From NCBI GenBank assembly GCA_002359215.1, contig DEMN01000001.1, forward strand, positions 16,593-80,592: 64,000 nucleotides of DNA. The letters are read 5' to 3'. Position numbers and translations under genes: made by a program. Below are positions 41,262 through 64,000 of the stretch, piece by piece. Under the pieces are notes generated by a model. The model worked only from the letters and a program-made list of their open reading frames with translations, did not search any database and was not told the DNA's origin. Within the stretch, counting starts at the first letter, position 1. The number at the start of each line of letters is the position of its first letter. Source of the DNA: Flavobacteriales bacterium UBA2669 (lineage in GTDB: Bacteria > Bacteroidota > Bacteroidia > Flavobacteriales_E > Vicingaceae).

Positions 41262-41435
41262 TTAACTTAAATAAGCCAATACTGCCTGTTTTAACACAAC
41301 ATCTCCCTGTCCGTCATTAAGAGCTGAGTAAAGCATCACAACAAAAGGCATAGGCACATCATCTTGAGTATATTTAATTCCTATCTTTTTTACATTATCT
41401 TTCTCCTGAACAACAACTTTATGAATCTCTATCAT
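41262..41435 (-). CDS. Possible 57-aa protein, below the ORF-track cutoff
   Basis: Hand translation: MIEIHKVVVQEKDNVKKIGIKYTQDDVPMPFVVMLYSALNDGQGDVVLKQAVLAYLS. ATG at 41435, TAA at 41262-41264. Confidence 0.3.
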   Translation of the reverse strand: MIEIHKVVVQEKDNVKKIGIKYTQDDVPMPFVVMLYSALNDGQGDVVLKQAVLAYLS

Positions 41436-41584
41436 GGCACAAATGATTTAATAAACCTCAGGGAACCCTCCTGACAATAATACTTTAACCATTCCTGTCG
41501 CTCCTGCCGGTTTTGAAGTTAAAGCTTTAGCAATAGTTTTCGGCTATCTGTAAGCAAGTACCAAAAGCCAGACGATATGCAGAA

Positions 41585-42001
41585 TTATTGTATTTGAGCC
41601 GTTTTATAATACTGAACCCGAAGCGTATGAATTTTACCCTCTTCGATACCAATCACCTTAAAATTAGTAAGACTTGTTTTACCGAACAGTTCCAATACAT
41701 CCCCATCACCAAAAGCTTGTCCTGAAATAGGCGTAGGAGCAGTTCCATTTTTCTTATACCTTAAAGCCCTTGTTTTGTTAGTAACAGAGGCATCCACCTC
41801 AAAGGAAATAGTAGCCGATATGGCATCTTGAGGAACTTTTAATACTTTAGCTTCGCTGTCATTTACATTCAGATCTTCATATCCGCCATTATTTTCATCA
41901 ATAGGAATACGTCCCCGTTCTCCCGAAGTCCATAGAATCAGTTCTTCAAGGTAATCTTCTGTAGAAGCAAAGTTTTGATGTGGATACGGATTATTTTTCA
42001 T
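41585..42001 (-). CDS. Small beta-rich protein (138 aa), possible virion component
   Basis: Clean ORF. The alternating hydrophobic pattern suggests a beta sandwich. No motif recognised. Confidence 0.55.
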   Translation of the reverse strand: MKNNPYPHQNFASTEDYLEELILWTSGERGRIPIDENNGGYEDLNVNDSEAKVLKVPQDAISATISFEVDASVTNKTRALRYKKNGTAPTPISGQAFGDGDVLELFGKTSLTNFKVIGIEEGKIHTLRVQYYKTAQIQ

Positions 42002-42039
42002 TTTTTTGTTTATTGTTAGTAGGGATTATGCTATCCTCT

Positions 42040-42088
42040 CTATTCTCTATTCTCTATTCTCTATTCTCTGTTCTCTGTTCTCTGTTCT
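42040..42088. repeat. Tandem heptamer array: CTATTCT x4 then CTGTTCT x3
   Basis: Read directly from the sequence. Embedded in the pyrimidine tract 42034-42102, upstream of the start at 42001. Confidence 0.9.
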
Positions 42089-42126
42089 CTCTTTTCTGTT
42101 CTATTAAGTTAACTTTCATTTTGCGG

Positions 42127-42660
42127 TTATGCTGCTAATATTCCCGTGCGTTCATATTCACGGTACAGACTAGCAACTGTTTTGCCTGCTAAATCCTGAA
42201 AGTGTGGTTTATCTTTAATAGAAGTCCAGCGACCACCCCATTCTAGGCCTAATGCCTCTCCCATTTGTCCAATCTTTTCCCAGTTCGGGTTGTTCCATAG
42301 CGGCTGACCATTTTTAAACTCTACTATATCCACTGCTTTTTTGTAATTATGAGAACTTTTACCGCACTTGGCATTCGTTACAATCTTCCCAGGAGCTGTC
42401 CTCCCTTGAGCATAAAGTTTGTTTTGTTCAGCACAATCACGATAAGCAGATATTACCCTTAACTCCATTCCTATATCTCTTGCCTTAGATAATAAATGCT
42501 TGATTTTTTTTCTAAACACCGGATCCAGTGAAAGTAAAAGCAGATCAGTTTTATAGTCAAAATGTTCATAAATCTTTTTTCGAGAAAGATAAAGACCTAC
42601 TCCCAATGCCACTATTCCTAAGGCAATACCTGTATACACATATTTCTTTTTAATTTCCAT
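42127..42660 (-). CDS. Membrane-anchored M15 (VanY / L-Ala-D-Glu peptidase-like) peptidoglycan hydrolase
   Basis: N-terminal TM VYTGIALGIVALGVGLYL. SAYRDCAEQNKLY, SSHNYKKAVDIV and GGRW...KPHFQ give the H-x6-D...H zinc-ligand arrangement. Confidence 0.85.
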   Translation of the reverse strand: MEIKKKYVYTGIALGIVALGVGLYLSRKKIYEHFDYKTDLLLLSLDPVFRKKIKHLLSKARDIGMELRVISAYRDCAEQNKLYAQGRTAPGKIVTNAKCGKSSHNYKKAVDIVEFKNGQPLWNNPNWEKIGQMGEALGLEWGGRWTSIKDKPHFQDLAGKTVASLYREYERTGILAA

Positions 42661-42793
42661 CTGTTTTTTTCTCTTGACAGTTACATGTTTTCTTTCTAGT
42701 TGACTGAATAAGGTTAATACTCATGGAAATAATACTAAGCGTTAAGAATGTACCTGAAAGAATAAGGATGAGTTTACTGTGTTTATTTTCCAT
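42650..42793 (-). CDS. 47-aa single-TM protein overlapping the start of the M15 gene (holin-like candidate)
   Basis: Hand translation: MENKHSKLILILSGTFLTLSIISMSINLIQSTRKKTCNCQEKKTDGN. Its stop overlaps the ATG at 42660 out of frame. Below the ORF-track cutoff. Confidence 0.45.
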   Translation of the reverse strand: MENKHSKLILILSGTFLTLSIISMSINLIQSTRKKTCNCQEKKTDGN

Positions 42794-42863
42794 GAGGCAA
42801 TCGTTATATCAGTTACTTGTTTTAAGGTTAATATCGGAATTGAGAACTTAAGAAGATTTTATA

Positions 42864-42963
42864 GAACAGAGAAAATAGAAGTTAGAACAAAGAGAAAAGA
42901 AGAATATGATACAACTGCTCTTTTCTATCTTCTTTGTTCTCTTCTCTAATATCTTACTTTTCT
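42864..42963. repeat. Polypurine arm / polypyrimidine arm imperfect hairpin (R/Y repeat family)
   Basis: AGAACAGAGAAAATAGAAGTTAGAACAAAGAGAAAAGAAGAA ... CTCTTTTCTATCTTCTTTGTTCTCTTCTCT. Confidence 0.6.
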
Positions 42964-42976
42964 AAGCTCTTTCTTC

Positions 42977-43417
42977 TCAATTCACTATCAGCAATACTGT
43001 CATGATACCCATTCCCACTCCTAATAGTAGTTTATGAGCTTTACTTCGTTTTATTTTTCTTTCCTGAAGAGTAATAGTTTTAGTTAGTATATCCATACTC
43101 TTTTGTTGGTTTTTATAAAGCAATACCATGTTGTTTATCTTTTGCTCTAAACCATCTACCAAGCTATCGTTAACCGCTATGGTTTGATTAAAAAGTTTTG
43201 CCCATTGATGTTGTTCTACCATCAAGGAATCACACCATATCCCAGCTTCCATATATCCGGCAATTACTTTACTTTGATTAATGGTAAAGCAAAATAGAGT
43301 ATCCTTATTCAGCTCTTGTACTATCGGTGTTAAACTCCCGACCCCTTGGAGCAAGTTTTGAGAAAAACAGATATAGTTCATCGTTAGTATAATGCTCAAT
43401 AGCGTTAATCTTTTCAT
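42977..43417 (-). CDS. Signal peptide + coiled coil + C-terminal TM protein
   Basis: MKRLTLLSIILTMNYICFSQ at the N-terminus and LLLGVGMGIMTVLLIV at the C-terminus. Confidence 0.6.
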   Translation of the reverse strand: MKRLTLLSIILTMNYICFSQNLLQGVGSLTPIVQELNKDTLFCFTINQSKVIAGYMEAGIWCDSLMVEQHQWAKLFNQTIAVNDSLVDGLEQKINNMVLLYKNQQKSMDILTKTITLQERKIKRSKAHKLLLGVGMGIMTVLLIVN

Positions 43418-43736
43418 ACTTTAGTTGTTTTAATTCATTTATCCTTTTGGTTTTACTTACCAATAATGCTTTTAAGCTATCCTGTTTTATTTTTAGCCCT
43501 TCATGACGCTTATCCAGTTTTTTATTTTTCCATAAAAGGGTATCGTTTTGAGCTTTGAGTAGCATCAGTTCTTCTTTGTACACCCTTAAGGTTTTCTCCT
43601 TATTTTCATTAAAAAAATAGACTCCTGTCAGCACAGCACCTATAACTAGCATTACAATTACTTTACAGTTATTCATAGCATTAGGGCATATCATGAAACC
43701 TGTCGTAATACCCTCTTGTTGACGCTTCTTTTTCAA
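43305..43736 (-). CDS. N-terminal TM + coiled-coil protein (spanin-like topology); the real start is probably the ATG at 43676
   Basis: TM VIVMLVIGAVLTGVYFF, then heptad-rich KEELMLLKAQNDTLLWKNKKLDKRHEGLKIKQDSLKALL. Confidence 0.55.
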   Translation of the reverse strand: MKKKRQQEGITTGFMICPNAMNNCKVIVMLVIGAVLTGVYFFNENKEKTLRVYKEELMLLKAQNDTLLWKNKKLDKRHEGLKIKQDSLKALLVSKTKRINELKQLKYEKINAIEHYTNDELYLFFSKLAPRGREFNTDSTRAE

Positions 43737-44079
43737 TTACCGAGTTAATGCGTAGTTTTTTCCCGATGTAGGTAGTTAACCCTTCCAAAATGAGTTTATG
43801 AAACACCAGTGCAAATACAAAAGATTGAAACAAACATTCTATTTGATTTAATTGATAACCTCTGATAAAGTAAATAGCAATGCCGTAAAGCAAGCCGATA
43901 ATAGCTACCCTGTATTTGGTTTTCGATGATATACAGGTTATCTTTTTGATACCCCCTTTTACCTTGTGGTGATTACACCCATAAGCAATGATGATAAAAG
44001 TGATGATGTACGTCCAATCCAGTTCATTCACGTAGGAGCTAAGCTGATTCCATATTGTTATAATGATTGTTACATTCAT
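43681..44079 (-). CDS. Three-TM small membrane protein (holin-like)
   Basis: Hydrophobic segments WTYIITFIIIAYGC, VAIIGLLYGIAIYFI and LFQSFVFALVFHKLIL. Confidence 0.5.
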   Translation of the reverse strand: MNVTIIITIWNQLSSYVNELDWTYIITFIIIAYGCNHHKVKGGIKKITCISSKTKYRVAIIGLLYGIAIYFIRGYQLNQIECLFQSFVFALVFHKLILEGLTTYIGKKLRINSVIEKEASTRGYYDRFHDMP

Positions 44080-44120
44080 AAATTTTAGTTTAGTTATTAT
44101 TTATTTAGTTGTTATTATGT

Positions 44121-44495
44121 TTATCCCGGAAAAACAATGTTTTCTAATGCGGTTAAGTTTGCCCGCCCCAAAATCTTTTTTTCATTGATTTTTCCATAAA
44201 ATTTTAGCATGCGTTTCTCCTTACTTTTATTGAGTTGTTGCCCATGATTCGGTAATACCGGCATTATCCATGTATAAGCTGTTAGCAGTTCCAAATCACT
44301 GTACCTCAGTTTTTGTAACTCTTTTTTAATTGCTTCTCTATCTATCTTTTTTTGCTTCTTATCGGCAGCTTCCTTCCATTTTTTCAGCAACCACCGGATT
44401 AATGTATTTTTTCCAATTGGAGTATTTGCAAAAGCCAAATAACCCACACCTGCAAAAACAGATATCCCGAAAAGTGTTATGGCTACTTTTTTCAT
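44121..44495 (-). CDS. N-terminally anchored protein (124 aa)
   Basis: TM VAITLFGISVFAGVGYLAF followed by a basic helical region. Confidence 0.55.
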   Translation of the reverse strand: MKKVAITLFGISVFAGVGYLAFANTPIGKNTLIRWLLKKWKEAADKKQKKIDREAIKKELQKLRYSDLELLTAYTWIMPVLPNHGQQLNKSKEKRMLKFYGKINEKKILGRANLTALENIVFPG

Positions 44496-44524
44496 TTTTT
44501 TTAGTTGTTAATTATTTATCAATT

Positions 44525-44650
44525 AGAACAGAGAGAAGAAAAAAGAGAAGAGAAAAAAGAGAACTGTACTATACAACTTCTAACTTCTCTTGTCTATCTT
44601 CTTTTTCTACCTTCTAATTTCTTTGTTCTTTTTTTCTGTTTACTGTTCTC
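44525..44650. repeat. R/Y hairpin repeat with conserved loop core TGTACTATACAACTTCT (44565-44581)
   Basis: Purine arm 44525-44563, loop, then pyrimidine arm 44577-44650. Confidence 0.7.
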
Positions 44651-44672
44651 CATCCTATTATCACCTCAAGCA

Positions 44673-44873
44673 TTACCGGTTAAGTTGACCCATTTTTTCC
44701 ATGTTCTTCACCACTCCACGCACTCCAAAAACGATAAGCGTGATAACAAAAGCAGTTCCTACAGCATACATAGAAGTTTTTCTTAAGGTCTGGTCGGTCA
44801 TGGTGATTTTGATATCTGTTTTTAATCCGTCATCACTTAATACATTGTCCAAATAATCTTTTATCGTTGCCAT
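44673..44873 (-). CDS. 66-aa single-TM protein
   Basis: TM MYAVGTAFVITLIVFGV. Confidence 0.5.
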   Translation of the reverse strand: MATIKDYLDNVLSDDGLKTDIKITMTDQTLRKTSMYAVGTAFVITLIVFGVRGVVKNMEKMGQLNR

Positions 44874-44874
44874 A

Positions 44875-45267
44875 TTATTTCTTTTTTAATTGTTCTATAT
44901 CCGTCTGGGAAACTGTAGTTTTTCCTAGTAGTTTCTTGACTGCTGCCTGAGTCATATCACCATACTTTCCATCTACTCCGTCTTTATTACTTCCGGTCTT
45001 CCCTAAGTCAGCTCCCAAGACATGTAATATTTTCTGTAAGACAGTTACCTTGTTTCCGCAGCTACCGTGTTTTAAGGGAAAACTATCATCGTACTTACAA
45101 AATCCTGAAGAGGAGGAAGAGGCGGAACTGCTGCTTTGTTCTCCGGGATTGTTTTCTTTTTTCTTGTTAAAATAGAAATAAGCTCCCGTTCCCAGCCCTG
45201 CCAGTAACAAAATACCTCCTGCTATCCAAAGAAGTTGATTGTCTATTTTAAATGTATCTGTAGCCAT
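44875..45267 (-). CDS. Membrane-anchored PG_binding_1 domain protein
   Basis: TM LLWIAGGILLLAGLGTGAYFYF, a Ser-rich linker, then GNKVTVLQKILHVLGADLG...DGKYGDMTQAAVKKLLG. Confidence 0.7.
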   Translation of the reverse strand: MATDTFKIDNQLLWIAGGILLLAGLGTGAYFYFNKKKENNPGEQSSSSASSSSSGFCKYDDSFPLKHGSCGNKVTVLQKILHVLGADLGKTGSNKDGVDGKYGDMTQAAVKKLLGKTTVSQTDIEQLKKK

Positions 45268-45328
45268 TTGTCTTGTTATTCATTATTCATTATTTGTTCT
45301 ATCTTCTGTCTTCCGACTTCTCAATTTC

Positions 45329-45736
45329 TTATTCGTCAATGATTACTGCATCTTCACGAACATACCCTTCATTTTTTCCATTAACCGGCACTGTTAAACT
45401 GATCTTGTACCAGTAATAACCATCTTCACCTTTTACTCTTTCCAAGATGCTCCCCACCGGATTAGTGTTTACCTTTTTGATTAAGTTATGTGAAAAATCA
45501 AACCTTCCCCAATTCTCATTATCCACCTTTGGAGAACTACGAACATTGGCATATCCTTCTGCTCCATAGCTGACTGTTTTGGTAAGGAGTTTTTCTTCTT
45601 CCTTTTCCTTTTGTTTACTGCTACTGGTAGTATATCCCTTTTTTTTGAAATACCTGTAAGCACCATATCCTGCTCCGGAGAGTACCACCGTAGCAATTGT
45701 TCCTATCAGTAAGTATTTTTTCGTTTTTGCATCCAT
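45329..45736 (-). CDS. Membrane-anchored SH3b-like domain protein
   Basis: TM YLLIGTIATVVLSGAGYGAY, then GYANVRSSPKVDN...GYYWYKISL...GYVREDAV. Confidence 0.6.
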   Translation of the reverse strand: MDAKTKKYLLIGTIATVVLSGAGYGAYRYFKKKGYTTSSSKQKEKEEEKLLTKTVSYGAEGYANVRSSPKVDNENWGRFDFSHNLIKKVNTNPVGSILERVKGEDGYYWYKISLTVPVNGKNEGYVREDAVIIDE

Positions 45737-45737
45737 G

Positions 45738-46211
45738 TTAATAGCTGTTAATGATATCTTTTATGCGTTGCATTTCTCTGGCATCGTCCATGTAATAAGT
45801 AATGTATTCCGCCAGACTTTTTTTGTATTTAGCTGCAAACATTCGGGCAATCAGGGAAAGATTATCGGCATTTCCCGCTTCTTCCAAAGCTGAGTAAAAC
45901 CCTCCTTCATCATCGTTAAAAACACCACCTGAATCATAGAGTTGCTCCGCTAACTTCTTTGCCCTGTCGTGAGAAATTGTTACCTTACCCTGTCGGGAGT
46001 AATTAGGGTCAAACCCTTTATAGCTCATGATACTTCGCATCTTTTTACCTTTCTTACAATCAGCTATCCCTGTTGCACAGAGTATAGGGCGAACAATACC
46101 GAAATAGGTTAGCCCCAGTCCAACCAGTACTACACCTCCTATGATGTAGGGAGTAGCTTTATTTCGAGCCAATCCTTCTACTGTTTTTACTCCTGTTATT
46201 GTACTGGTCAT
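45738..46211 (-). CDS. N-terminally anchored protein (157 aa)
   Basis: TM TPYIIGGVVLVGLGLTYFGIV followed by a helical C-terminal domain. Confidence 0.55.
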   Translation of the reverse strand: MTSTITGVKTVEGLARNKATPYIIGGVVLVGLGLTYFGIVRPILCATGIADCKKGKKMRSIMSYKGFDPNYSRQGKVTISHDRAKKLAEQLYDSGGVFNDDEGGFYSALEEAGNADNLSLIARMFAAKYKKSLAEYITYYMDDAREMQRIKDIINSY

Positions 46212-46233
46212 TTTTTGTTACTGTTGTTTAAAC

Positions 46234-46320
46234 AAAAGAGAAGGAAAAACAGAGAAATTAGAAGTTTAAAGTTTTGTTTATCCTCTCTGTTCTAATTTCT
46301 ATATTCTCTTTTCTCTAATC
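46234..46320. repeat. R/Y repeat with an 11-bp perfect stem AGAAATTAGAA / TTCTAATTTCT
   Basis: The purine arm AAAAGAGAAGGAAAAACAGAGAAATTAGAAG faces the pyrimidine arm TCCTCTCTGTTCTAATTTCTATATTCTCTTTTCTC. Confidence 0.6.
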
Positions 46321-46321
46321 T

Positions 46322-46504
46322 TTAATTGATAATTTCCTTTACTGTCTCTTCCACTTGAGTTTGGTTTAAGCCGTTTTCTTTTAAGAAAGCTTCCAAACGG
46401 CTTTTTACCCGCTCTTGTTTTTTCTTTACTTTCTCCCTGTCATATCTGACATATAACTGGCGACCTAACCAAAACCCTACGGCAAGTGTTACTACTGTTC
46501 TCAT
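46322..46504 (-). CDS. 60-aa single-TM protein
   Basis: TM VVTLAVGFWLGRQLYV followed by a basic helix. Confidence 0.5.
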   Translation of the reverse strand: MRTVVTLAVGFWLGRQLYVRYDREKVKKKQERVKSRLEAFLKENGLNQTQVEETVKEIIN

Positions 46505-46602
46505 TTTATAAATGTTAAATTATAAGTGTTAAATGTTGAATGAATTATCACTTGTTATTCCATCCCAAATCAATCCTCAATCAAGGTTAAGGACAAGCTA
46601 TT

Positions 46603-47088
46603 TCAAAAGATGTTCTTTTGAGGTACTCCAATACTTTCCAACCATTTAGGCACATTGAAACCGGGCATTTCTACTTTATCCATTGCCGGGACTTGATTTA
46701 GTCCCATAATAATCAAATCAGGGTTTCTTAGTAACCGGTATTGTACATATATTTTCAGTGTCTCTTTCTGCTCTTTGGTTCGGGTGTCCCATTCTTTACT
46801 GTTATCCTTGGTTCTTCCCCCAACAATGGCTACATATTTTGCCATTCCCGATAATCCGTTTATCCCTTGGGAGATTCCCCACAAATCCACTTCATTAGGG
46901 CTATTTTCAGGAATAATATTAATTAGTTCCCCTTCCAACAAGATAAGATCATCTATTCGGGGACGATTTAGCCCCAATCCCCCTGCATGAACAGGGCTAA
47001 TATGCTGCTGGATAATCGCTGCTTTACTGATTTCCACTCCTCCCGGAGTATTCGTACTGACGATAATTAAGTAATCTGCTTTTTTCAT
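46603..47088 (-). CDS. Amidase_2/PGRP-like fold with substituted zinc ligands (probable non-catalytic peptidoglycan binder)
   Basis: YVAIVGGRTKDNSKEWDTRTKEQKETLKIYV...IMGLNQVPAMDKVEMPGFNVPKWL parallels T7-lysozyme IGVCLVGG...TPAQMQSL...AHHEVAPKACPSFDLKRWW. However His, His and Cys are replaced (IIVSTNT for VHCSAT, GLNQ for AHHE, MP for CP). Confidence 0.45.
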   Translation of the reverse strand: MKKADYLIIVSTNTPGGVEISKAAIIQQHISPVHAGGLGLNRPRIDDLILLEGELINIIPENSPNEVDLWGISQGINGLSGMAKYVAIVGGRTKDNSKEWDTRTKEQKETLKIYVQYRLLRNPDLIIMGLNQVPAMDKVEMPGFNVPKWLESIGVPQKNIF

Positions 47089-47124
47089 TTTTTTGTTTTT
47101 TTTGTTGTTGGTTAATAGTTAGCA

Positions 47125-47190
47125 TAGAGGAGAGAGGAAAGAACAGAGAATTGTACTATACAACTTCTGATTTCTCTTTTCTATATTCTA
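47125..47190. repeat. R/Y hairpin repeat with the same loop core TGTACTATACAACTTCT (47152-47168)
   Basis: GAGGAGAGAGGAAAGAACAGAGAA-TTGTACTATACAA-CTTCTGATTTCTCTTTTCTATATTC. Confidence 0.7.
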
Positions 47191-47625
47191 TTTTTCGTCT
47201 TCTTTTAATCTTCTGTATCCTAACAGTTGTGCTGCATTATAAGCTTTGATACATACTTGGTTGTTTTGATTACCTCCCAAACAGTAGATGTATTTGTCAT
47301 CTTCTGAATGATTGATGTAAATGGCTACATGTCCTTTCCAACTCTTAGGTTGCTCTCTCCAAAAGATAACCACGTCTCCCGGTTCTGGTGTTGTGACTTC
47401 TTCTCCTACCGTCAGCCAAGACCTTGCATTAAGTTTTCCTGAACGGGTTACTCCTGCTTTTAAGGCACACCAATTCATAAAGATGGAACACCATGCCGTT
47501 TCATCGGTAATGATTCCTCCATACCCAATCTCTTTAGAATACCCTACAATGGTAGGGTTATGTTCTTTTCCCTGAATTTCTTTCACCCCATATTGGGAAA
47601 GTGCTATACTTAGTAATTTGTTCAT
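47188..47625 (-). CDS. TIGR02594-type (NlpC/P60-CHAP-like) cell-wall hydrolase
   Basis: GVKEIQGKEHNPTIVGY...ETAWCSIFMNWC...GDVVIFWRE...KGHVAIYI...CLGGNQNNQV. Confidence 0.8.
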   Translation of the reverse strand: MNKLLSIALSQYGVKEIQGKEHNPTIVGYSKEIGYGGIITDETAWCSIFMNWCALKAGVTRSGKLNARSWLTVGEEVTTPEPGDVVIFWREQPKSWKGHVAIYINHSEDDKYIYCLGGNQNNQVCIKAYNAAQLLGYRRLKEDEK

Positions 47626-56691: not shown

Positions 56692-59600
56692 TTATTCCAA
56701 ATCTTTTTCATTTCTTTCAGGGAGAATATCATTTGAAACCTTTGAAACAGTAACTTTCCCAGGCATAATGCTTCCCTTATTATGTTTAATCCAACAAGCT
56801 TTAATCAAGTACTCTGTATCTCTTTGTTCTGCTGGATTTAAAAATTTTGTAGCGTAATTACCACGCAAACTAGAGTATAAGTTCCCAAGATAAAATGAAT
56901 TTTTGTCTAGTTCAGACATGTAAATTAATATGGAATCTTTCCAACCTTGTGGTCTAGCGGTACATTCCATTAATGCAAAAATATGTTTCACTGTAAGGTC
57001 TTCTTCCTTCGATCTATGTTCACGAAAAAGCATCCTTAATTTATCTGAAAAAAGATCATCTTTAAACCAAACATTAATATTTAAAGGCATAGCAACTATA
57101 ATACTCTTTAAACATTCATTAAATTCTTTTGGAAAATCATCCGTTAACTTAAATCTTGCACCACCTACACCACCAAAACCATTCTTAGCAAGTATAGGAG
57201 CGATTAAATAAAGAGCTCTCATCAACTCCTTCCATGCCATCGCAATGTTTTTCAATAGTTCTTCTTTATGTTCAGGCTTTATAAATTCACTATTTCTTAG
57301 TGCACGGGAACTGGATTTAATCAGTTCCATAAGATTTTTTATATCATACTCTTCTAAATAATTATTTATTGTTTGTGTGTATGGTTTTATACTATTATAA
57401 TTTTTATCAGCAACTATATCTTTTATTTCATCAGATACTTTGGATTGTTTGATATTTTGTTCAAGCTGATTTTGAGTCATCCCTTTTACTGTTTCATTTA
57501 AAGACCACTTTATTTCCTTAAATGGATTTATATCATCTGATAACCCAATTTTAGAATGCACCTTATTTGAAAGTGTTGAAAGATCGTTTATCAGCATCTT
57601 CACTATATCTTCAGACCTTCCATCCAAACCAGTATAAAATTCGATTATCTCAGGAAAGTAAAGAGAATGTTTATCATTCAGCATATAAGCTTTAAATTCT
57701 TCTGAATCTTTCATTCTGATGGCAGCGAAATAATAAATCCAGTAAGAAAATCTAAATCGAAGCTCACCGTTAAGACCAACTACAATTTGATTGTTTTTTA
57801 AAACCTGTAATAAATCAGATACATTAGATGGGTTATATTCTTTCTCACAAAAAGGTCTTGTAATTTTATAAAACTCATCTTCAGTAAAGGATTCTTTGTT
57901 TTTTCGAAGAAGATACTCACAAAAATAACCTACTATGAATCCACAATTCTCTTCGTCCAAAGTGTCACCATAAAATAAACTACCTGGATTATCAAAAATC
58001 ACTTTTAGCACATATTTAAAAACCTTAGACCGGTTAATTGGTCTATCTTCAAAGTCATTCAGAAATGCAATTAATAATTGAATACAATTAATTGGTGTAC
58101 GGTGAATATTTAGATCAATCAAATCAACATCTAATCTTTCAAGCACTCTATTTTCTTCCGCTATTTCGTATAATGAGTTAAAATCACTTACTAAATTACG
58201 AAGTCCTTTACGATTAAGCTCACGTAAAAAAAGTTGACTAAACCCTTCATGACTTTCTTCCGAATCTAAACCTTCCAAAACAATATTGTCATGATAGTTC
58301 GACAAGATTATTAAAGAGACGCTTGGGAATTTACTTCGAATATTTTTTAAAATCTTTTGAGCATCTTTCGTATTATTTTTCCAATGATCTAGTAAGAAGC
58401 ATTTTATATCTTCATTTTGAATTTGCAAGTCTTGTATTACATCCTCAAGATCAGAATGATATTTACCAAAAGTCCAGTTGTGAGTATCTAAATAAACCCA
58501 ACAGTCTTTTTTTATTTCCCATGCTTTCATTGCCAAATAATGAGCATAGCATGTTAAACCAAAATGTGGTGCTGCAATTAAATGATAGTTCTGAGGATTG
58601 TTTATAATATTTATATAATCTAAACTTTTAGATTCTTTTTTAGATGAGTTATTTGGAGAATCAGTTGTACAAATACGTTCAACCCATTTTGGTAACTTAG
58701 AATACGATTTCATTGCTTTTTGAAAATTCGATTTAAGTTTTAATGAGATAAAATCATCTAGGGTTATTTCTGAACGTCTGAAATTGTAGATCCCATTTTC
58801 AGTTCCAGAAAAATTTTGACCTCTCATGAATTTTCTTTGTCGAGGCACCCATTCTCTGTATTCAACTGAATCTATTTTTTCATTTTGAAATTTAATTAAA
58901 GCATATCCGTTAAGATCTGGCTTGTCTGAAAACAATTGTGGAGATCCCAATTTTATTATCCCTTGATTATCTGAAATAAAAGAATGATTAATATCTTGAT
59001 CATGGATGTGACCAGATATAAGTATATCAATGCCATTTTTTAGCATGCCTTTTAATTCTTTCCTAGCAAAATCGGTAAGAAACTCTACGGGATGATGCAT
59101 TACTAACATCTTGGTACGACCCTTATTATCACGTATCCATTCATTTAATCCAGCAGTTTCTATTTTTAATACACCTTTATCGTTAATACCATTGAAACCT
59201 CCAGAACAAAGCAACGAGCAATTAAGAAAGTAAATGGAAATTTCAGGAATTAATAATTCTGAATAACCAGTCAAATTAAAGTTTGAAACGTGCAATTTTT
59301 CTTTGCAAAACTTTTCATAATACTTAAATTTATTTTGAGTTAGGTTGCCGTCTTTCTTTACAAAATCATTGAATTCAGTTTCATTAAATTTTTGAGAAAT
59401 GAGATTATTATGGTCTTCAATATTTTGTTCAACGATATTTCTATTTAAATCATGATTTCCCGGTGAACAGAATATATTCTGAAGAGGGATAAGTTTTGTC
59501 AACTTCAAAATAAAGTTTTGGTAGAACTCATTAAATATCTTTTCTGAATTGCCCCTATTAACTAAATCACCAGAAATAATACAATACGTATTTGTGGCAT

Positions 59601-59721
59601 TAGCTGAATCAAATTTAGCTTCAAGGTCATCAAAAAATGAGTTTATTACTAGCCCTTGGTTTTCAGGTTCATTATTTTCATAATGAATGTCGGATATATG
59701 AATTATTGTTATTTCACTCAT
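56692..59721 (-). CDS. 1009-aa calcineurin-like metallophosphoesterase fused to a STAND-like module with a degenerate Walker A and a helical C-terminal region
   Basis: MPE motifs ISDIHY, SGDLVNRGN, PGNHD, VMHHP and SGHIHD (aa ~4-280). LIAAPHFGLTCY (aa 381-392) then CFLLDHW (aa 441-447), spaced like Walker A and B. ELRFRFSYWIYYFAA (aa ~653-667) resembles the STAND winged-helix signature. Confidence 0.8.
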   Translation of the reverse strand: MSEITIIHISDIHYENNEPENQGLVINSFFDDLEAKFDSANATNTYCIISGDLVNRGNSEKIFNEFYQNFILKLTKLIPLQNIFCSPGNHDLNRNIVEQNIEDHNNLISQKFNETEFNDFVKKDGNLTQNKFKYYEKFCKEKLHVSNFNLTGYSELLIPEISIYFLNCSLLCSGGFNGINDKGVLKIETAGLNEWIRDNKGRTKMLVMHHPVEFLTDFARKELKGMLKNGIDILISGHIHDQDINHSFISDNQGIIKLGSPQLFSDKPDLNGYALIKFQNEKIDSVEYREWVPRQRKFMRGQNFSGTENGIYNFRRSEITLDDFISLKLKSNFQKAMKSYSKLPKWVERICTTDSPNNSSKKESKSLDYINIINNPQNYHLIAAPHFGLTCYAHYLAMKAWEIKKDCWVYLDTHNWTFGKYHSDLEDVIQDLQIQNEDIKCFLLDHWKNNTKDAQKILKNIRSKFPSVSLIILSNYHDNIVLEGLDSEESHEGFSQLFLRELNRKGLRNLVSDFNSLYEIAEENRVLERLDVDLIDLNIHRTPINCIQLLIAFLNDFEDRPINRSKVFKYVLKVIFDNPGSLFYGDTLDEENCGFIVGYFCEYLLRKNKESFTEDEFYKITRPFCEKEYNPSNVSDLLQVLKNNQIVVGLNGELRFRFSYWIYYFAAIRMKDSEEFKAYMLNDKHSLYFPEIIEFYTGLDGRSEDIVKMLINDLSTLSNKVHSKIGLSDDINPFKEIKWSLNETVKGMTQNQLEQNIKQSKVSDEIKDIVADKNYNSIKPYTQTINNYLEEYDIKNLMELIKSSSRALRNSEFIKPEHKEELLKNIAMAWKELMRALYLIAPILAKNGFGGVGGARFKLTDDFPKEFNECLKSIIVAMPLNINVWFKDDLFSDKLRMLFREHRSKEEDLTVKHIFALMECTARPQGWKDSILIYMSELDKNSFYLGNLYSSLRGNYATKFLNPAEQRDTEYLIKACWIKHNKGSIMPGKVTVSKVSNDILPERNEKDLE

Positions 59722-59950
59722 TTATAAAGTTTATTGGTCTTGATTGTTCTATTTAATTACCCCTAACATGCATATAACAACAATGCTATTATCCACATTA
59801 CATGCTTAATGCAAATGTAGTAATTTAATAAGTTCTTTATATATTTAATATTTGTAAAAAAACTCTTTTACAAAATTGTCAGATAGTCAGTTAAAACAAC
59901 CTATTTCAACTACTAGTTCATTCATTCAATACCTAGTGTACGCTTTTTAA

Positions 59951-60454
59951 CTAGGATACCACAGTAAAATTCAATTGTTTCCCTAAATTTAATTGATTCG
60001 TAAACCATGCACTGGCAAACCATGAGCCATCACCCTCACCAGTAGGCGTTTCAAAATTAATACGCTTGTTAAAAAGAATCATCTCTAGTCCACACTGATG
60101 AAAAAAGCGTTGTCGTTTTTCAGACTCTAAGGTAGTAAGCGGCAGTAAAAAAGCAAAAGGTTTACCCAGACAATAAGCCCTCTCTAAAAACTCCTGTTTC
60201 AGCGAAAAAGGAGGATTAGTAATGATACAATCATACTGTTTAGGCTCAAAACTTAGAAAATCTTCCCCCGAATGAATATCCGTAGCAATAACCTTATACC
60301 CTTGTTTTCTAAGAGTTTTCACCAAATTACCCTCACCCGCAGCACACTCCCATATTACCCAGTTTTTCTTAAGATGTGGTAGTAATGGAGTTAGTGCTAG
60401 CGGTGGGGTTTGGTAATCATCCCGACTTCCTTGCCTTTGAGCTTTAATCATCAC
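59951..60454 (-). CDS. Small N6-adenine DNA methyltransferase (NPPF type)
   Basis: Motif I WECAAGEGNLV and motif IV IITNPPFS. 167 aa, with no adjacent restriction gene. Confidence 0.75.
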   Translation of the reverse strand: MMIKAQRQGSRDDYQTPPLALTPLLPHLKKNWVIWECAAGEGNLVKTLRKQGYKVIATDIHSGEDFLSFEPKQYDCIITNPPFSLKQEFLERAYCLGKPFAFLLPLTTLESEKRQRFFHQCGLEMILFNKRINFETPTGEGDGSWFASAWFTNQLNLGKQLNFTVVS

Positions 60455-60464
60455 CTAAGCCAAT

Positions 60465-60740
60465 TTAGTAGTAATGAATTTGCCTGATAATTTTCTGTAT
60501 GCGGTCTTTTTTATCAATTCCTAACCATATTAAAGCTATCTGATGCCCGGCTCTAAAACTTTTAGGACTTTCTTCCAGCAACGCCCCACGAGAATAGTCA
60601 ATACTACCATTCTCATAAACAGGATAAAAATACAGTCGTCCTTTATATACCCTATAAGCTGTATGATGATGTTGAACAACATAAGTTTTAAAAGGAAGCT
60701 TATAGGCTTTTTTCCCGGGAGTTTGTCGTGTTGATTTCAT
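60465..60740 (-). CDS. Hypothetical protein (91 aa)
   Basis: Clean basic ORF. Confidence 0.5.
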   Translation of the reverse strand: MKSTRQTPGKKAYKLPFKTYVVQHHHTAYRVYKGRLYFYPVYENGSIDYSRGALLEESPKSFRAGHQIALIWLGIDKKDRIQKIIRQIHYY

Positions 60741-60745
60741 AGTAT

Positions 60746-60955
60746 TTAAGGCTTACTTTTTCTATTGGTTTTGGCAATATTGCCTTGTTTATCCAAAAAA
60801 TAAAGGCATCCTTTCTCTTTAATTATCCCCGTTCTTGCCACTACCTTTTGATGCTTAGTCGTTGGTTTCAGCTCCGTTAAATCCCCCTCCCTGTTAATGA
60901 AGTACAACATGCCTTTTTTTCGTTTAAAATTAAGTTGCTTTACTATTGTTGCCAT
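60746..60955 (-). CDS. Hypothetical 69-aa protein with an internal duplication
   Basis: KKGMLYFINREGDLTEL and EKGCLYFLDKQGNIAKT. Confidence 0.5.
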   Translation of the reverse strand: MATIVKQLNFKRKKGMLYFINREGDLTELKPTTKHQKVVARTGIIKEKGCLYFLDKQGNIAKTNRKSKP

Positions 60956-60974
60956 AGGAGGGGGGAGTTAAGTA

Positions 60975-61910
60975 TTAAAAAGCTGAATTTATTTTTTGTT
61001 CATGGTGTCTTAAGTATTTAGCAATAAGATGCACGACCACTTCACTTCTGTTATTGAATTTAGGCGTATCATCCATGTTCATTTCCTGAAGCAGCATCTT
61101 TACTTTTTTGCTCTCATGCGTGTCGATGTATTTTTTGGCAGCCCGGATAAAAGCCTGCCGACTTACTCCACGAATACGCAACCTTCTCATATCTACATAT
61201 ACACAGAAGCTCTTACGCCTTTTAAACTCCTGCTTACCAATCATCCCTTCGGCATAAGCTGCATTAGCTAAATCATACTGTTCATCTATAATGAAAGTTG
61301 CTATGCGAACCAAGAAATAATTAGGAATACGTTCCCTATACCTGCTAATATCATCCACCTGATGATGTAAGCGTAACCAAGTACAATTCTCCCATTCAGT
61401 AGTGGTAATCTTGGCAATGGATTGATGACTAATCATAATGTCTAGTCCATTGTGCCGGTTGGTAGTTAATAATCCAACGATGCTTTGTCCTTTTGCTCCT
61501 ACCATGTACTTATCCAAGTCCTCAAGTACCAATAACCCATTCTTAAAACGGTTTACCATTTGTTCCACCACATCTCTCTTTTCTTCAATGGTCATGTTCC
61601 TGCCACTCTTAGTAATGGGTCGTATTCTTCTTGCGTTAATAGCAGTAAGGTTTTGAATTAAATTCACCTTGACCGTTTTAAACTGTGGGTAATCATCATC
61701 GTTAACATCAAATGCCAGTACTTTACGTCCTTTTCGTTTATTTTCAATATTATCTTTCATGTATCGGAAGATTTCTATTAAGTTACGGTAAGTTTTTCCC
61801 ACACCCGTTTCCCCACAGGTGAGCACTAACATAGGTTGCCTTTCCAATTCTTCTTTAGAATAGCTGATTTTCTTTCTTCCCCGATGGTTTGTTGCTACTG
61901 TTGCTGACAT
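60975..61910 (-). CDS. Zot / filamentous-phage pI-like P-loop ATPase (no TM segment)
   Basis: Walker A CGETGVGKT, Walker B LLVLEDLDKY, and NRHNGLDIMISHQS, which matches the Zot-family HRH.G.D....TQ pattern. Confidence 0.65.
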   Translation of the reverse strand: MSATVATNHRGRKKISYSKEELERQPMLVLTCGETGVGKTYRNLIEIFRYMKDNIENKRKGRKVLAFDVNDDDYPQFKTVKVNLIQNLTAINARRIRPITKSGRNMTIEEKRDVVEQMVNRFKNGLLVLEDLDKYMVGAKGQSIVGLLTTNRHNGLDIMISHQSIAKITTTEWENCTWLRLHHQVDDISRYRERIPNYFLVRIATFIIDEQYDLANAAYAEGMIGKQEFKRRKSFCVYVDMRRLRIRGVSRQAFIRAAKKYIDTHESKKVKMLLQEMNMDDTPKFNNRSEVVVHLIAKYLRHHEQKINSAF

Positions 61911-62029
61911 GAATAATGGCTGCCCGTTAAGGGAGTATTATTGCCACCCGGTGGAATTCACCTCGTTGGTTCATTTGTAAATCTTCGCTGTGTACGATAG
62001 GGGTGTAAGTGGTACTATTCTTGCTCTTC

Positions 62030-63052
62030 CTAGTTATCTCCGTCATCATCAGCCACCTCCAGTAAAGTGCTGCTCAATCCATCAGGAGCTCTTGCTATGC
62101 TTTCTTCAGTAATAAGGTTTTCCGTTTTTAAATGCTCTTGCTCAAGGTACTGCTTATTTTCTCCCTTTTCATGGAAATGAACTTCTTGTTTTTCCTGAGT
62201 TTGCTGCTTTTCCTGTTCTGTTACAATTGGCTGGTGTTCTTCCTGTTCTTCCTGTTCTTCTTCCTCTTCATTCTCTAAAGGTGCTTCTTCCACATCCTGA
62301 TCAGAATAGCCTTTTTCTTCTCTGATGACATCCAGTATTCGCTCTACAAGTATTTCATTCTCTGCTTTAATTTCCATTACCATCTGTGCTTTTTTCATCA
62401 AAATAGATAAGATGGCTGCTGATAATTGTTGCTCCGGAGTAAGCTGTTTTGCTTTTTGCTTTAGCATGGCTATTAATAGTGGACGAAGCAATATTTTATC
62501 GTCTTCATCAAGTTTTAAACGCCTTACATTTTTCTCATTGTTTTCATCAATAAGTTGGATAACTTCATCAAAGTCATAAAATTCTTTGTGCTTTTTAATT
62601 TTGATGAAAAACCCACCACCAACGGTAATTACATTATCCGCTATTCCAAATATTGCTTCTGTAGCTCTTTTAGCATGAGAATGAGGAATTTCAAATTCTT
62701 CAGCACCAGGTATTTCATCTTCTGCCTGCTCATCATATTCTCCGGAGCCTATCTCCTGTTCCGGAACATCATCTTTGGTATTGTTCTTAAAATAAAAATC
62801 CTCTTCTTTGGGTTGTTGAGTTGACTGACTTTCTTCAGGTTCTTCCTTTTCAAGGCTTTCCGTTAATACATCATGCCCTTTTAGATTTTCTTGTTTTTCC
62901 GATGCTGTAGCGGATGAATGATGTCCTATTTCATTTTCTGCTACCGGTTGATTTAAAGGGCTGCTTTCAGCATCCAATGCATCTTCAAAGGCTACATTTT
63001 CAGTGGCTTGATTCAATACTTCTTTTACTTCTTCTTCTACTGTTTTTCCCAT
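62030..63052 (-). CDS. Highly acidic 340-aa protein
   Basis: E/D/Q-rich N- and C-terminal thirds flank a central helical core. No motif recognised. Confidence 0.6.
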   Translation of the reverse strand: MGKTVEEEVKEVLNQATENVAFEDALDAESSPLNQPVAENEIGHHSSATASEKQENLKGHDVLTESLEKEEPEESQSTQQPKEEDFYFKNNTKDDVPEQEIGSGEYDEQAEDEIPGAEEFEIPHSHAKRATEAIFGIADNVITVGGGFFIKIKKHKEFYDFDEVIQLIDENNEKNVRRLKLDEDDKILLRPLLIAMLKQKAKQLTPEQQLSAAILSILMKKAQMVMEIKAENEILVERILDVIREEKGYSDQDVEEAPLENEEEEEQEEQEEHQPIVTEQEKQQTQEKQEVHFHEKGENKQYLEQEHLKTENLITEESIARAPDGLSSTLLEVADDDGDN

Positions 63053-63102
63053 GTTGCTTGTTGTTAGTGCTAACTTCTTCTATTTTCTTTGTTCTATCTT
63101 CT

Positions 63103-63144
63103 AACTTCGGTCTTCTGACTTCGGTCTTCTGACTTCGGTCTTCT
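63103..63144. repeat. Tandem 14-mer x3, (A/G)ACTTCGGTCTTCT; iteron-like
   Basis: Units at 63103-63116, 63117-63130 and 63131-63144, read directly. The last unit overlaps the stop of 63143..63604. Confidence 0.9.
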
Positions 63145-63604
63145 ACAATTTCCCTATAAATTCAATGGTGTATTTATCCAGTTGTTGGTATTTCTCTGCA
63201 AATTCCTTATCGAAAAAAGGAGCTTCAACCAGTTCTTTACACTTTTGGCAGTAATACAGGATGCCTCGTTTGTTTTTTCCGAAGAGTTCCCCTATCTTGG
63301 CATAACTGCACTTGGTATAAGTATAGAGGATATGATAACATGCCATTCGAGCTTCTCGATACTCTCGTATATCAGAGGTATAAAATTTACTTTCTTCTAA
63401 ACTGAATAAGCGTATAGCTTGAGAAGAAACATAAGTTGCTATGAGTTTGACTTTTCCCATTTCGCTAGCGGTAATGGAGGAATTGTTATTAAAACTTTCC
63501 AATAACTCGGTGGTTTTCTCAATACCAATGTTATTAATTACCCCTTCTAATGCCTGTTGTAAGCGTTCGAGAGCCATTATTGGTATATGTTTATTTTCCT
63601 CCAT
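63143..63604 (-). CDS. DnaA domain IV-like HTH protein
   Basis: IREYREARMACYHILYTYTKCSYAKIGELFGKNKRGILYYCQKCKEL parallels the Bac_DnaA_C pattern R..aRqiAMYL...T..S...IG..FG.rdH.TV. Confidence 0.5.
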   Translation of the reverse strand: MEENKHIPIMALERLQQALEGVINNIGIEKTTELLESFNNNSSITASEMGKVKLIATYVSSQAIRLFSLEESKFYTSDIREYREARMACYHILYTYTKCSYAKIGELFGKNKRGILYYCQKCKELVEAPFFDKEFAEKYQQLDKYTIEFIGKL

Positions 63605-63617
63605 GATTTTCTTTAAC

Positions 63618-63995
63618 TTATGATTTAAACCCTATCTCCTTTAAATAACTTTCCTTATTATCAGAGGAGCTGATTTTTTCAGCAAGGTTTTTCTCCAGCT
63701 TGCTTCTGTATTCTTTAGAAGCCAACACCCAAGAGAGTGTCTTATCTAAATCAAGGGATAAAATATAGGCGGCATCACCGGCTAACCTCTCGGCACTCAT
63801 TTTCTTTAAATGAGCGATAATTGCTTCCTTTTCGGAATTATTATTGCTAGTAACCTCAAGGTAATAGGTATAACTGAACAATGCTTTTGACAAGGTGTAT
63901 TTCCCAACGATATGCTCCTTTTTATCCAGTTTTCCTTTAAATCCTAGCTCTCTTAATGTAGTACGCCCTATACGTTTTTGCTTTTTCTGAAACAA
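63618..63995 (-). CDS. Hypothetical protein (125 aa)
   Basis: ORF only. It lies close to the window edge, so the upstream context is unknown. Confidence 0.45.
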   Translation of the reverse strand: MFQKKQKRIGRTTLRELGFKGKLDKKEHIVGKYTLSKALFSYTYYLEVTSNNNSEKEAIIAHLKKMSAERLAGDAAYILSLDLDKTLSWVLASKEYRSKLEKNLAEKISSSDNKESYLKEIGFKS

Positions 63996-64000
63996 CCGCT

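Follow-up and report, generated by a model that had tools for sequence, protein, structure and literature searches.

A 40.7-kb integrated element of a Flavobacteriales bacterium, probably a temperate provirus of an undescribed family of tail-less viruses of Bacteroidota

What is the block of genes that occupies positions 41262–64000 of a 64,000-nucleotide stretch of the genome of Flavobacteriales bacterium UBA2669 (contig DEMN01000001.1; the whole stretch is hereafter the window)? A preliminary description, made from the letters of the window, had seen there a virus-like integrated element of more than 22 kb that lacked recognizable caudovirus hallmark genes. We find that this region, mostly on the minus strand, makes up the right-hand ~23 kb of a longer integrated element (~40.7 kb), whose true extent is thus ~41 kb and not 22 kb. 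From the gene content we infer that the element is probably a temperate provirus of an undescribed family of tail-less, probably membrane-containing double-stranded DNA viruses of Bacteroidota, and that the region is most likely the morphogenesis, lysis and cargo half of that provirus. The features that carry this reading are listed below, with positions in the window and protein lengths in amino acids (aa).

41255..64000, minus strand: right-hand ~23 kb of the element, the remainder lying beyond the window end (locus L088).
47660..49231, minus strand: 523-aa protein in which a YVTN/YNCE beta-propeller stands between an N-terminal region and a C-terminal jelly-roll-like domain (Pfam YNCE, E = 1e-12; hhalign).
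53173..54021, minus strand: 282-aa jelly-roll-like protein, the most conserved gene of the family (AlphaFold2 model, Foldseek).
60975..61910, minus strand: 311-aa P-loop ATPase with the fold of B204, the genome-packaging nucleoside triphosphatase (NTPase) of Sulfolobus turreted icosahedral virus (STIV) (FtsK-HerA/A32-like; AlphaFold2, Foldseek).

Both ends of the element could be placed. On the right, homology with a compact relative in a Sunxiuqinia metagenome-assembled genome (MAG; locus L006) breaks off exactly at the stop codon of a 57-aa gene at window position 41262, which confirms as a real end the point where the region had been said to start. The left end lies ~18 kb past the window end, directly 3' of a tRNA-Leu(CAA) gene (L088 1651/1652; the window-equivalent position is 83652 minus the L088 position), and these two ends therefore give a length of ~40.7 kb. 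An integrase, sought beyond the window in the preliminary description, is indeed found beside this tRNA: a 538-aa large serine recombinase (phrog_95 integrase, E = 1e-58) whose gene runs into and abuts the tRNA 3' end. The element thus has the integrase at one end, the site-specific insertion and the defined ends of a temperate provirus. A relative in a Vicingaceae MAG (L097) carries a 91%-identical recombinase abutting tRNA-Leu(TAA) between unrelated host flanks, and element homology between L088 and L097 starts directly past the tRNA 3' end; different tRNA-Leu isoacceptors therefore serve as targets. No repeat of the tRNA 3' part was found at the right end (23-mer, up to three mismatches; blastn-short gave chance matches only), as expected for a serine recombinase, and this result gives no help in defining the attachment (att) sites. 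The terminal letters of this copy are ...TATTTAAGTTAA on the side of the 57-aa gene and CTAAACGGGACAAAT... on the recombinase side, and the candidate attP junction would join the end of the 57-aa gene to the recombinase end as ...TATTTAAGTTAA + CTAAACGGGACAAAT....

Several smaller observations concern the integration region. In L088 (1571–1651) the recombinase open reading frame (ORF) extends antisense into the tRNA-Leu gene, which gives it the C-terminus '...VGIEPT...', and in L097 (1570–1745) the insertion site follows a tRNA-Gly/tRNA-Leu(TAA) pair. In Patiriisocius marinus (L056 7739–9265) a serine-recombinase homologue, 26% identical to the one at tRNA-Leu, lies within the cargo slot, next to the jelly-roll gene on its upstream side. 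Scans of 60 related loci found no tRNA within 10 kb of the candidate capsid gene, an Rfam scan of window positions 40000–64000 gave no match, and a search with the left flank for related contigs returned one short contig only.

The half of the element beyond the window encodes, in order, the 311-aa protein whose gene runs past the window end, a 79-aa membrane protein, a 204-aa protein, a 1407-aa SNF2 helicase, a 1122-aa N6-methylase (whose relatives bear polyvalent-protein domains), a GT1 glycosyltransferase, a divergent pair of small helix-turn-helix-like genes and the 538-aa recombinase. Read from its left end, the whole element runs from the integrase and the divergent helix-turn-helix-like pair through the glycosyltransferase, N6-methylase and SNF2 helicase to a DnaA-C-like protein, an acidic protein and the ATPase, followed by cargo, a structural block and lysis genes. 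This order matches that of a temperate virus.

The 282-aa protein is a candidate major capsid protein on the evidence of its structural model. The predicted core (residues 70–210; predicted local distance difference test (pLDDT) 70–85) has nine strands with a helix between strands C and D, and is flanked by an acidic N-terminal tail and an Arg-rich C-terminal tail, both disordered in the model. Nearly all of its Foldseek matches are jelly rolls, including picorna-like VPs, the coat protein of satellite tobacco mosaic virus, nucleoplasmin cores and the PR772 capsid chain; the Arg-tailed, beta-rich protein that had been singled out as a possible hidden jelly roll therefore does have a jelly-roll-like core. 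Structure prediction covered two proteins, this one and the ATPase, and among the other conserved ORFs none except the propeller protein is plausible as an all-beta protein of at least 270 aa. A profile search of 1.84 billion cluster representatives placed the family in a wider superfamily of 232 clusters with the jelly-roll core, most of them 200–260 aa long.

A second jelly-roll-like domain is fused to a beta-propeller. Residues 405–503 of the 523-aa protein align with residues 105–205 of the 282-aa family (hhalign probability 90–91%, E = 2e-6 to 9e-7), the two share an SPQNF motif, and the pair was one top match in an all-against-all profile comparison of the core families. In tail-less icosahedral viruses, capsid and vertex proteins are arranged in this way, a shell protein going together with a paralogous barrel to which a receptor-binding domain is attached. 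Paralogy of the two domains is what would be expected if the 282-aa protein were the capsid protein and the 523-aa protein the vertex spike, and we regard the latter as a candidate vertex or spike (receptor-binding) protein. Its YVTN propeller, reported earlier, is supported by the Pfam match given above.

The ATPase was modeled with high confidence (pLDDT 89.7; predicted template modeling (TM) score 0.85). The top 15 Foldseek matches in the PDB are all B204 of STIV or STIV2 (E = 7.5e-8 to 8e-6, target TM score 0.56–0.62), whereas the Zot N-terminal domain 2r2a comes at rank 23 (target TM score 0.45 versus ~0.6 for B204). The protein had been called Zot/pI-like in the preliminary description; the ATPase assignment stands, but in structure inovirus Zot/pI is more distant from it than capsid-packaging NTPases are. 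Pox_A32 Pfam matches occur in some homologues, NCBI gives homologues the name 'zonular occludens toxin domain-containing protein', and the Pfam Zot match of this copy is marginal (22.1 bits versus a cut-off of 20.3). We also noted weak matches to phrog_2666 ('terminase large subunit', E = 1e-6) and to the Walker-B region of the P23-77 ATPase (E = 0.006); sequence and profile searches against the PDB gave chance matches only, and a Kyte–Doolittle scan found no transmembrane segment in the ATPase.

These genes belong to a widespread and mobile family. The 282-aa protein has at least 342 homologues with 60–97% identity, and in one-genome-per-species Bacteroidota collections 114 loci of the family were counted, spread over Flavobacteriaceae, Vicingaceae, Crocinitomix, Cyclobacteriaceae, Fulvivirga, Ekhidna and Sunxiuqinia. 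Single genomes can hold several diverged copies, with three in Kordia algicida OT-1, three in Dokdonia ponticola and two in several Aquimarina. Across 80 related loci the block 42977–54021 is syntenic, no host flank is common to these loci, and the trio of DnaA-C-like, acidic and ATPase genes is kept in every locus that reaches far enough upstream. Nucleotide identity between genera reaches 93–97% over 11–20 kb (within the groups Dokdonia/Nonlabens/Aquimarina, Winogradskyella/Ulvibacter/Patiriisocius and Formosa/Polaribacter) and therefore indicates recent transfer between genera. The core ORFs of the present copy are all full length relative to their homologues. The compact variant in the Sunxiuqinia MAG (L006 10001–17367) retains the jelly-roll, tail-anchored and 75-aa genes together with the M15/138/57 module at its end. 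In this variant a 422-aa ORF replaces the propeller, HExxH, CHAP and amidase genes.

Around the jelly-roll genes lies a block of small structural and lysis genes:

41262..42660, minus strand: terminal module of a 57-aa protein, a 138-aa beta-rich protein and an M15 (VanY-type) peptidase, shared with the end of L006.
42977..46504, minus strand: nine to ten small membrane proteins (transmembrane scan; weak Pfam matches), conserved in 20–59 related loci.
44875..45267, minus strand: PG_binding_1-like protein (Pfam, E = 5e-4, weak).
45329..45736, minus strand: SH3-like protein (Pfam SH3_3, E = 6e-3, weak).
46603..47625, minus strand: two soluble peptidoglycan hydrolases, an amidase-like protein of 161 aa and a CHAP/NlpC protein of 145 aa, in 54–59 loci.
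49231..50016, minus strand: 261-aa HExxH protein (H187, E188 and H191 invariant in 24 homologues).
50042..50780, minus strand: 136-aa tail-anchored protein (transmembrane scan) and 75-aa small beta-rich protein, the latter in 64 loci.
50816..53086, minus strand: three consecutive tail-anchored proteins of 243, 235 and 228 aa (C-terminal transmembrane segments).
54103..54258, minus strand: 51-aa single-pass membrane protein with a Lys-rich C-terminal tail and same-position homologues in 52–54 loci.

As first described, the region is tightly packed and nearly all minus-strand: ~32 ORFs lie between 41262 and 64000, and only the AbiE pair (54615–56466) is on the plus strand. The estimate of at least 14 membrane proteins was nearly reached, with 12 clear and two weaker cases in the Kyte–Doolittle scan, and these 12–14 small membrane proteins in the structural block give indirect support to a possible internal lipid membrane. 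The resemblance to viruses of internal-membrane type, proposed at the outset, gains support from the B204-like ATPase fold, the jelly-roll-like protein and its propeller paralogue. One product of this block (43681–44079) is a holin-like protein that is possibly multi-pass, with one segment scored and others seen by eye. The 243-, 235- and 228-aa proteins each combine a helical N-terminal domain, a long charged linker and a C-terminal transmembrane segment; the N-terminal domains of the 243-aa and 228-aa families are homologous (profile comparison, probability 87%), and the 228-aa protein occurs in 79 of the 80 related loci. We consider the three to be candidate capsid-to-membrane linkers. The gene of the 51-aa membrane protein is always directly upstream of the jelly-roll gene.

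The three peptidoglycan-hydrolase folds reported earlier were recovered by Pfam and PHROG searches, as the M15 peptidase, the amidase-like protein and the CHAP/NlpC protein; the PG_binding_1 and SH3b modules named with them have matches too, but weak ones. The M15 peptidase (42127–42660; Pfam Peptidase_M15_4/VanY, E = 2e-12; PHROG endolysin, E = 5e-31) has an N-terminal anchor formed by a transmembrane segment at residues 8–26 and is a candidate lysis endolysin. The amidase-like protein (46603–47088; phrog_822, E = 4e-8) and the CHAP/NlpC protein (47188–47625; CHAP, E = 2e-8; tail-lysozyme end of phrog_1259, E = 5e-30) may be virion-associated entry lysins. Between the 138-aa gene and the M15 gene lie nine tandem copies of TCTCTAT (window 42037–42102). 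The HExxH protein, whose motif had also been noticed, is predicted to be zinc metallopeptidase-like from the invariance of that motif. It gave no Pfam, PHROG or PDB sequence match, profile searches included (chance PDB matches only), and is the second most conserved core gene, recognizable at E = 1.6e-61 in a distant relative (L096). This distant member of the jelly-roll superfamily lies on a 37 kb metagenome contig with all genes in one direction, which also encodes a 228-like protein, a glucosaminidase, an M15 peptidase and an SLT transglycosylase. The core of jelly-roll, tail-anchored and HExxH proteins and lysins is therefore older and broader than the sampled family.

On both sides of the ATPase gene lie two copy-specific genes and what may be a replication and regulation module:

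60465..60955, minus strand: two small basic proteins of 91 and 69 aa, specific to this copy, with no match in related loci.
62030..63052, minus strand: 340-aa highly acidic protein (net charge −53), conserved beside the ATPase.
63097..63145, minus strand: array of 3.5 copies of the 14-mer GAAGACCGAAGTCA (Tandem Repeats Finder), between the DnaA-C-like and acidic-protein genes.
63143..63604, minus strand: 153-aa protein with a DnaA domain-IV-like helix-turn-helix (Pfam Bac_DnaA_C, E = 3e-4).
63618..64000, minus strand: C-terminal part of a 311-aa gene that runs past the window end.

Earlier readings of this module fared unevenly. The very acidic protein is as described. The DnaA-domain-IV-like match exists but falls below the curated Pfam cut-off (21 bits versus 31.5), and relatives give the same weak match; we take the 153-aa protein as a candidate DNA-binding protein for replication initiation or regulation. 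The 14-mer array is real (3.5 copies, where three had been counted), but we set it aside as origin iterons and do not count it as evidence of an origin. It contains a purine-rich motif, AGAAGTTAGAA, that is found throughout the element and recurs in ~12 of its intergenic leaders, so that the array may instead be regulatory. On the coding strand of the window AGAAGTTAGAA has 13 occurrences with up to one mismatch (2.9 expected), 12 of them inside the element; they span 42877–63109 (for example 44578–44622, 52336–52346 and 63068–63109) and lie mostly in short intergenic leaders. It is possibly a signal that the element's genes share for transcription or translation.

Between the ATPase and the capsid module the element has a slot for cargo:

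54615..60454, both strands: cargo island with an AbiEi/AbiEii-like pair (plus strand), a Metallophos-STAND NTPase and an orphan DNA methyltransferase.

The preliminary description had named an AbiE-like pair, a metallophosphoesterase-STAND protein and a small methyltransferase here. For the pair (54615–56466) the precomputed AbiEii match is faint. The other two stand on firmer matches: the 1009-aa protein (56692–59721) combines Metallophos and nSTAND4 and matches the PADLOC candidate system PDC-S60 (E = 4e-50), and the 167-aa methyltransferase (59951–60454) matches phrog_799 (E = 2e-47). The GC content of the island falls to 29–33%, and nearly all related loci lack these genes. In relatives the ATPase and jelly-roll genes lie between 436 bp and 8.9 kb apart; where there is no cargo, the gap is 436–470 bp and holds one tiny membrane-protein ORF. 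Elsewhere the slot holds type III restriction-modification (in one case a complete system), HEPN, PIN, Fic+SMEK, a KAP NTPase, another STAND NTPase or a TonB-dependent receptor. Variable slots further upstream in relatives contain a Gabija-like pair (OLD-TOPRIM ATPase and UvrD helicase) or McrBC with the mutagenesis genes ImuB/DnaE2. Loci with cargo in one or other of these variable slots include L085 2199–6087, L093 1620–9517, L016 4353–9223 and L081 6295–8565. Most relatives also have an AAA_5 (MoxR-like) ATPase and then a DUF7192 protein directly after the helicase (L063 2735–4685, L092 14293–16285 and L093 17623–19601, the helicase of L092 and L093 having strawberry-notch-type Pfam domains), a pair that this copy lacks.

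On the other side of the right end lies the host flank. Positions 381–34491 encode giant surface proteins of 1525–2779 aa, of which the two scanned have SprB, PKD and RHS repeats, together with a 521-aa protein with a CHU_C type IX secretion signal. GC content rises to ~40% in the region of the 2779-aa RHS gene and is very low (~27%) at 34–40 kb, where there are only unannotatable ORFs.

The absence of caudovirus (Caudoviricetes) hallmarks reported earlier was confirmed with PHROGs and Pfam over the ~32 ORFs, which include no terminase, portal, HK97 capsid, tape measure, sheath or baseplate protein. Two weak labels were not counted as hallmarks, namely the resemblance of the CHAP protein to a baseplate-hub lysozyme end and the phrog_2666 match of the ATPase, and tape-measure families gave low-complexity matches only (E = 0.004–0.06) in a tail-anchored protein. 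Nor was there a Pfam match to a relaxase, type IV coupling protein, VirB4/TraG or Bacteroidota Tra family among the window ORFs or in the precomputed matches for the off-window half and the relatives. A tblastn search of INPHARED with the 282-aa protein gave no match, and with the ATPase it gave only a Zot-like gene of an Alteromonas filamentous phage (26% identity, E = 6e-3). Pattern and tblastn scans of IMG/VR with the jelly-roll and ATPase families found nothing, as did a PLSDB search with the jelly-roll protein. The literature searched contains no description of these elements, although its coverage is incomplete and an earlier description is possible. Within these sources, the view that no described virus group of Bacteroidota has this gene set holds.

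Several results weigh against reading the element as a virus or the 282-aa protein as its capsid. The AlphaFold2 model of that protein reaches moderate confidence only (mean pLDDT 59, against 70–85 in the core). Its matches in Foldseek, none better than E = 6e-4, are weak, and among them capsid proteins score no higher than nucleoplasmin cores. No double jelly-roll protein was found, the modeled capsid candidate being one barrel of ~140 residues, and hhalign detected no similarity between the 282-aa family profile and VP16/VP17 of P23-77. The fold matches of the ATPase also include a Zot domain, TcpA and HerA, and the FtsK-HerA superfamily takes in B204-like, inovirus pI and conjugation ATPases alike. 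No replication protein (the Rep that had been sought with the att sites) was recognized in the element. Among the contigs examined with the 138-aa and 92-aa end proteins there was no excised circle, attP junction or empty site; every one that carried the end genes had the integrated arrangement, at the same site in the source population. Known phage records showed no sequence similarity to the jelly-roll protein and one weak, Zot-like match to the ATPase, and absence from IMG/VR fits an overlooked virus and, equally, something that is not a virus.

The last point would suit a non-viral integrative mobile element, be it conjugative, vesicle-borne or a carrier of defense islands, in which the membrane block and hydrolases would make up a transfer apparatus across the envelope, with the ATPase translocating DNA. 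FtsK-HerA-type ATPases, with TcpA and HerA among the fold matches, drive conjugative transfer too, small membrane proteins and cell-wall hydrolases suit secretion and mating systems as well, and polyvalent methylase and helicase proteins are found on conjugative elements as on phages. We nevertheless consider this explanation unlikely, and rejected a conjugative element as the leading interpretation, because the 41 kb contain no match to a relaxase, coupling protein, VirB4/TraG or Bacteroidota Tra family. The best ATPase matches, moreover, are capsid-packaging enzymes, the two paralogous jelly-roll domains, one of them Arg-tailed, have no role in known transfer systems, and the endolysin-type M15 enzyme sits at the distal end like a phage lysis cassette. 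A defective or domesticated provirus of such a virus, which makes particles or vesicles for the benefit of the host or is kept for its defense cargo, is somewhat more unlikely still. It would account for finding integrated copies only, always at the same site in this population, for the heavy defense cargo and for the compact L006 without several core genes; the cross-genus identity of 93–97%, which implies recent horizontal spread, the several diverged copies per genome, the full-length core ORFs and the different tRNA-Leu site of the closest relative speak against it.

Three further explanations have little left in their favor. A giant inovirus-like filamentous element, in which a Zot/pI-type ATPase extrudes DNA coated by a small hydrophobic protein, is suggested by the Pfam Zot score just over the cut-off, the NCBI naming of homologues, the sole phage-database match of the ATPase (the Alteromonas Zot-like gene) and the 51-aa protein, which is reminiscent of a pVIII-type coat protein in that a Lys-rich tail comes after its transmembrane segment. 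With Inoviridae/Tubulavirales the element also shares an FtsK-HerA superfamily ATPase, integration and the property of being easily missed by virus-finding tools. Inovirus genomes, however, are small (~5–15 kb), and their virions are released by extrusion without lysis genes. At 41 kb the element is several times the known inovirus size, its ATPase has neither a membrane anchor nor a periplasmic domain and is closer to B204 than to the Zot N-terminal domain (target TM score 0.6 versus 0.45), and three lysis-type hydrolases and jelly-roll proteins clash with non-lytic extrusion. We therefore judge this reading very unlikely, and the earlier remark that size (~40.7 kb) and lysis enzymes do not fit inoviruses was sound. 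Slightly less probable again is a tailed prophage in which divergence has put the terminase, portal, capsid and tail genes beyond recognition: ~87% of PHROG families have no known function, most of the hypothetical proteins cannot be excluded by sequence, and the ATPase has its weak 'terminase large subunit' match. That ATPase, however, has 311 aa, no nuclease domain and a B204 fold, the conserved block has no ORF longer than 282 aa except the propeller gene and hence no room for a portal, tape measure or sheath, and the most conserved protein is a small jelly roll and not an HK97 fold. The many membrane and peptidoglycan-related proteins could also recall a conserved, immobile chromosomal locus for the cell envelope, the alternative that the preliminary description had set against its own reading. 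This is effectively refuted by the unshared host flanks, the patchy, multi-copy distribution, the integrase at a tRNA gene, the near-identical copies in different genera and the different tRNA-Leu site of the relative.

As a tail-less virus, the element in its workings is most likely closest to viruses with a single-jelly-roll capsid and an A32-type ATPase, but we do not assign it to any described family. The Thermus phages P23-77 and IN93 and the haloarchaeal SH1-like viruses (Matshushitaviridae and Sphaerolipoviridae; formerly Helvetiavirae) are tail-less with an internal membrane, and IN93 is temperate. In the P23-77 map an A32/FtsK-HerA-type ATPase lies just upstream of the single-jelly-roll capsid genes, which are followed by small membrane proteins and peptidoglycan hydrolases. 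Cargo-free relatives of the present element have the same order of ATPase, small ORF(s), jelly-roll protein, small membrane proteins and lysins, the tail-anchored proteins coming after the jelly roll, and the A32/FtsK-HerA-type packaging ATPase typical of Singelaviria/Helvetiavirae is present (B204 fold; Pox_A32 in homologues). Viruses of that type encode two vertical single-jelly-roll major capsid proteins side by side; here there are two paralogous jelly-roll-like domains, but they are not adjacent, one is propeller-fused, neither resembles VP16/VP17 in sequence, and the capsid candidate has long acidic and Arg-rich tails. The element is also larger (~41 kb versus 17–31 kb), its hosts belong to the phylum Bacteroidota, and it carries a serine integrase, polyvalent methylase and helicase genes and defense cargo.

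Other virus groups offer more partial parallels. With STIV and Turriviridae the element shares the packaging ATPase fold, for which B204 is the best structural match. With these and the other double-jelly-roll viruses of the Bamfordvirae (Tectiviridae, Corticoviridae PM2, Autolykiviridae and Finnlakeviridae) it would share an internal membrane, jelly-roll-based vertex spikes and virion lysins. Membrane-containing tail-less phages that infect Flavobacterium are exemplified by FLiP and PhiCjT23 (PMC9719478). In contrast to double-jelly-roll viruses, the modeled capsid candidate is a single barrel and no double jelly roll was found, the genome is 3–5 times that of PM2, FLiP and autolykiviruses, and it encodes no protein-primed polymerase and no rolling-circle Rep. 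The 1122-aa N6-methylase and 1407-aa SNF2 helicase recall carriers of P1 DarB-type polyvalent anti-restriction proteins and match PHROG families of large phage methylases/helicases and DarB-like proteins; unlike in the P1 DarB type, the two activities are separate genes here, and in relatives they are joined to the AAA_5 and DUF7192 pair.

If the element is such a provirus, its cycle might run as follows. After induction the recombinase would excise a circle, and the DnaA-C-like protein would start replication with host machinery. The 282-aa protein would form an icosahedral shell over a lipid vesicle loaded with the 12–14 small membrane proteins and tethered by the three tail-anchored paralogues, while the propeller–jelly-roll protein would stand at the vertices as a receptor-binding spike. 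The ATPase would pump DNA in through a vertex, and the Arg-rich tails of the capsid protein could neutralize the DNA or bind the membrane. At entry the CHAP and amidase proteins would open the peptidoglycan, and at the end of the cycle the membrane-anchored M15 peptidase and the possible holin would lyse the cell. While integrated, the provirus would guard its host against other phages by means of its AbiE pair, STAND NTPase and orphan methylase.

Tentatively, and with a little less than an even chance of being right, we propose that these elements represent a major lineage, hitherto unrecognized, of family level or higher: temperate, tail-less, membrane-containing double-stranded DNA viruses of ~40 kb with a single-jelly-roll shell, a propeller-spike paralogue and filling by an A32/B204-type ATPase, common in marine Flavobacteriia, able to cross genera and ferrying defense systems. 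Such a lineage would either stand, as a bacterial sister group, beside the single-jelly-roll viruses of archaea and Thermus or form an independent intermediate on the way from single- to double-jelly-roll capsids. Tail-less membrane-containing phages are rarely isolated and are systematically missed by sequence-based virus detection, and the autolykiviruses are an example of how important such phages can be in the ocean. Copies in several cultured type strains make the virus question directly testable; cultured carriers include Kordia algicida OT-1, Dokdonia ponticola CGMCC 1.16527, Aquimarina agarilytica ZC1, Formosa sp. A9, Patiriisocius marinus KCTC 32322 and Croceibacter atlanticus. If the provirus reading is true, these viruses would rank with the largest tail-less ones of bacteria, a new phylum would be added to those in which a jelly-roll capsid goes together with an A32-type ATPase, and a single barrel with charged tails beside a propeller-fused paralogue would bear on the evolution of jelly-roll capsids. 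The family has hundreds of members in Flavobacteriia and Cytophagia, key degraders of algal organic matter, among which it is a cross-genus vehicle for defense systems that include AbiE, STAND NTPases, Gabija, type III restriction-modification, HEPN/PIN and McrBC.

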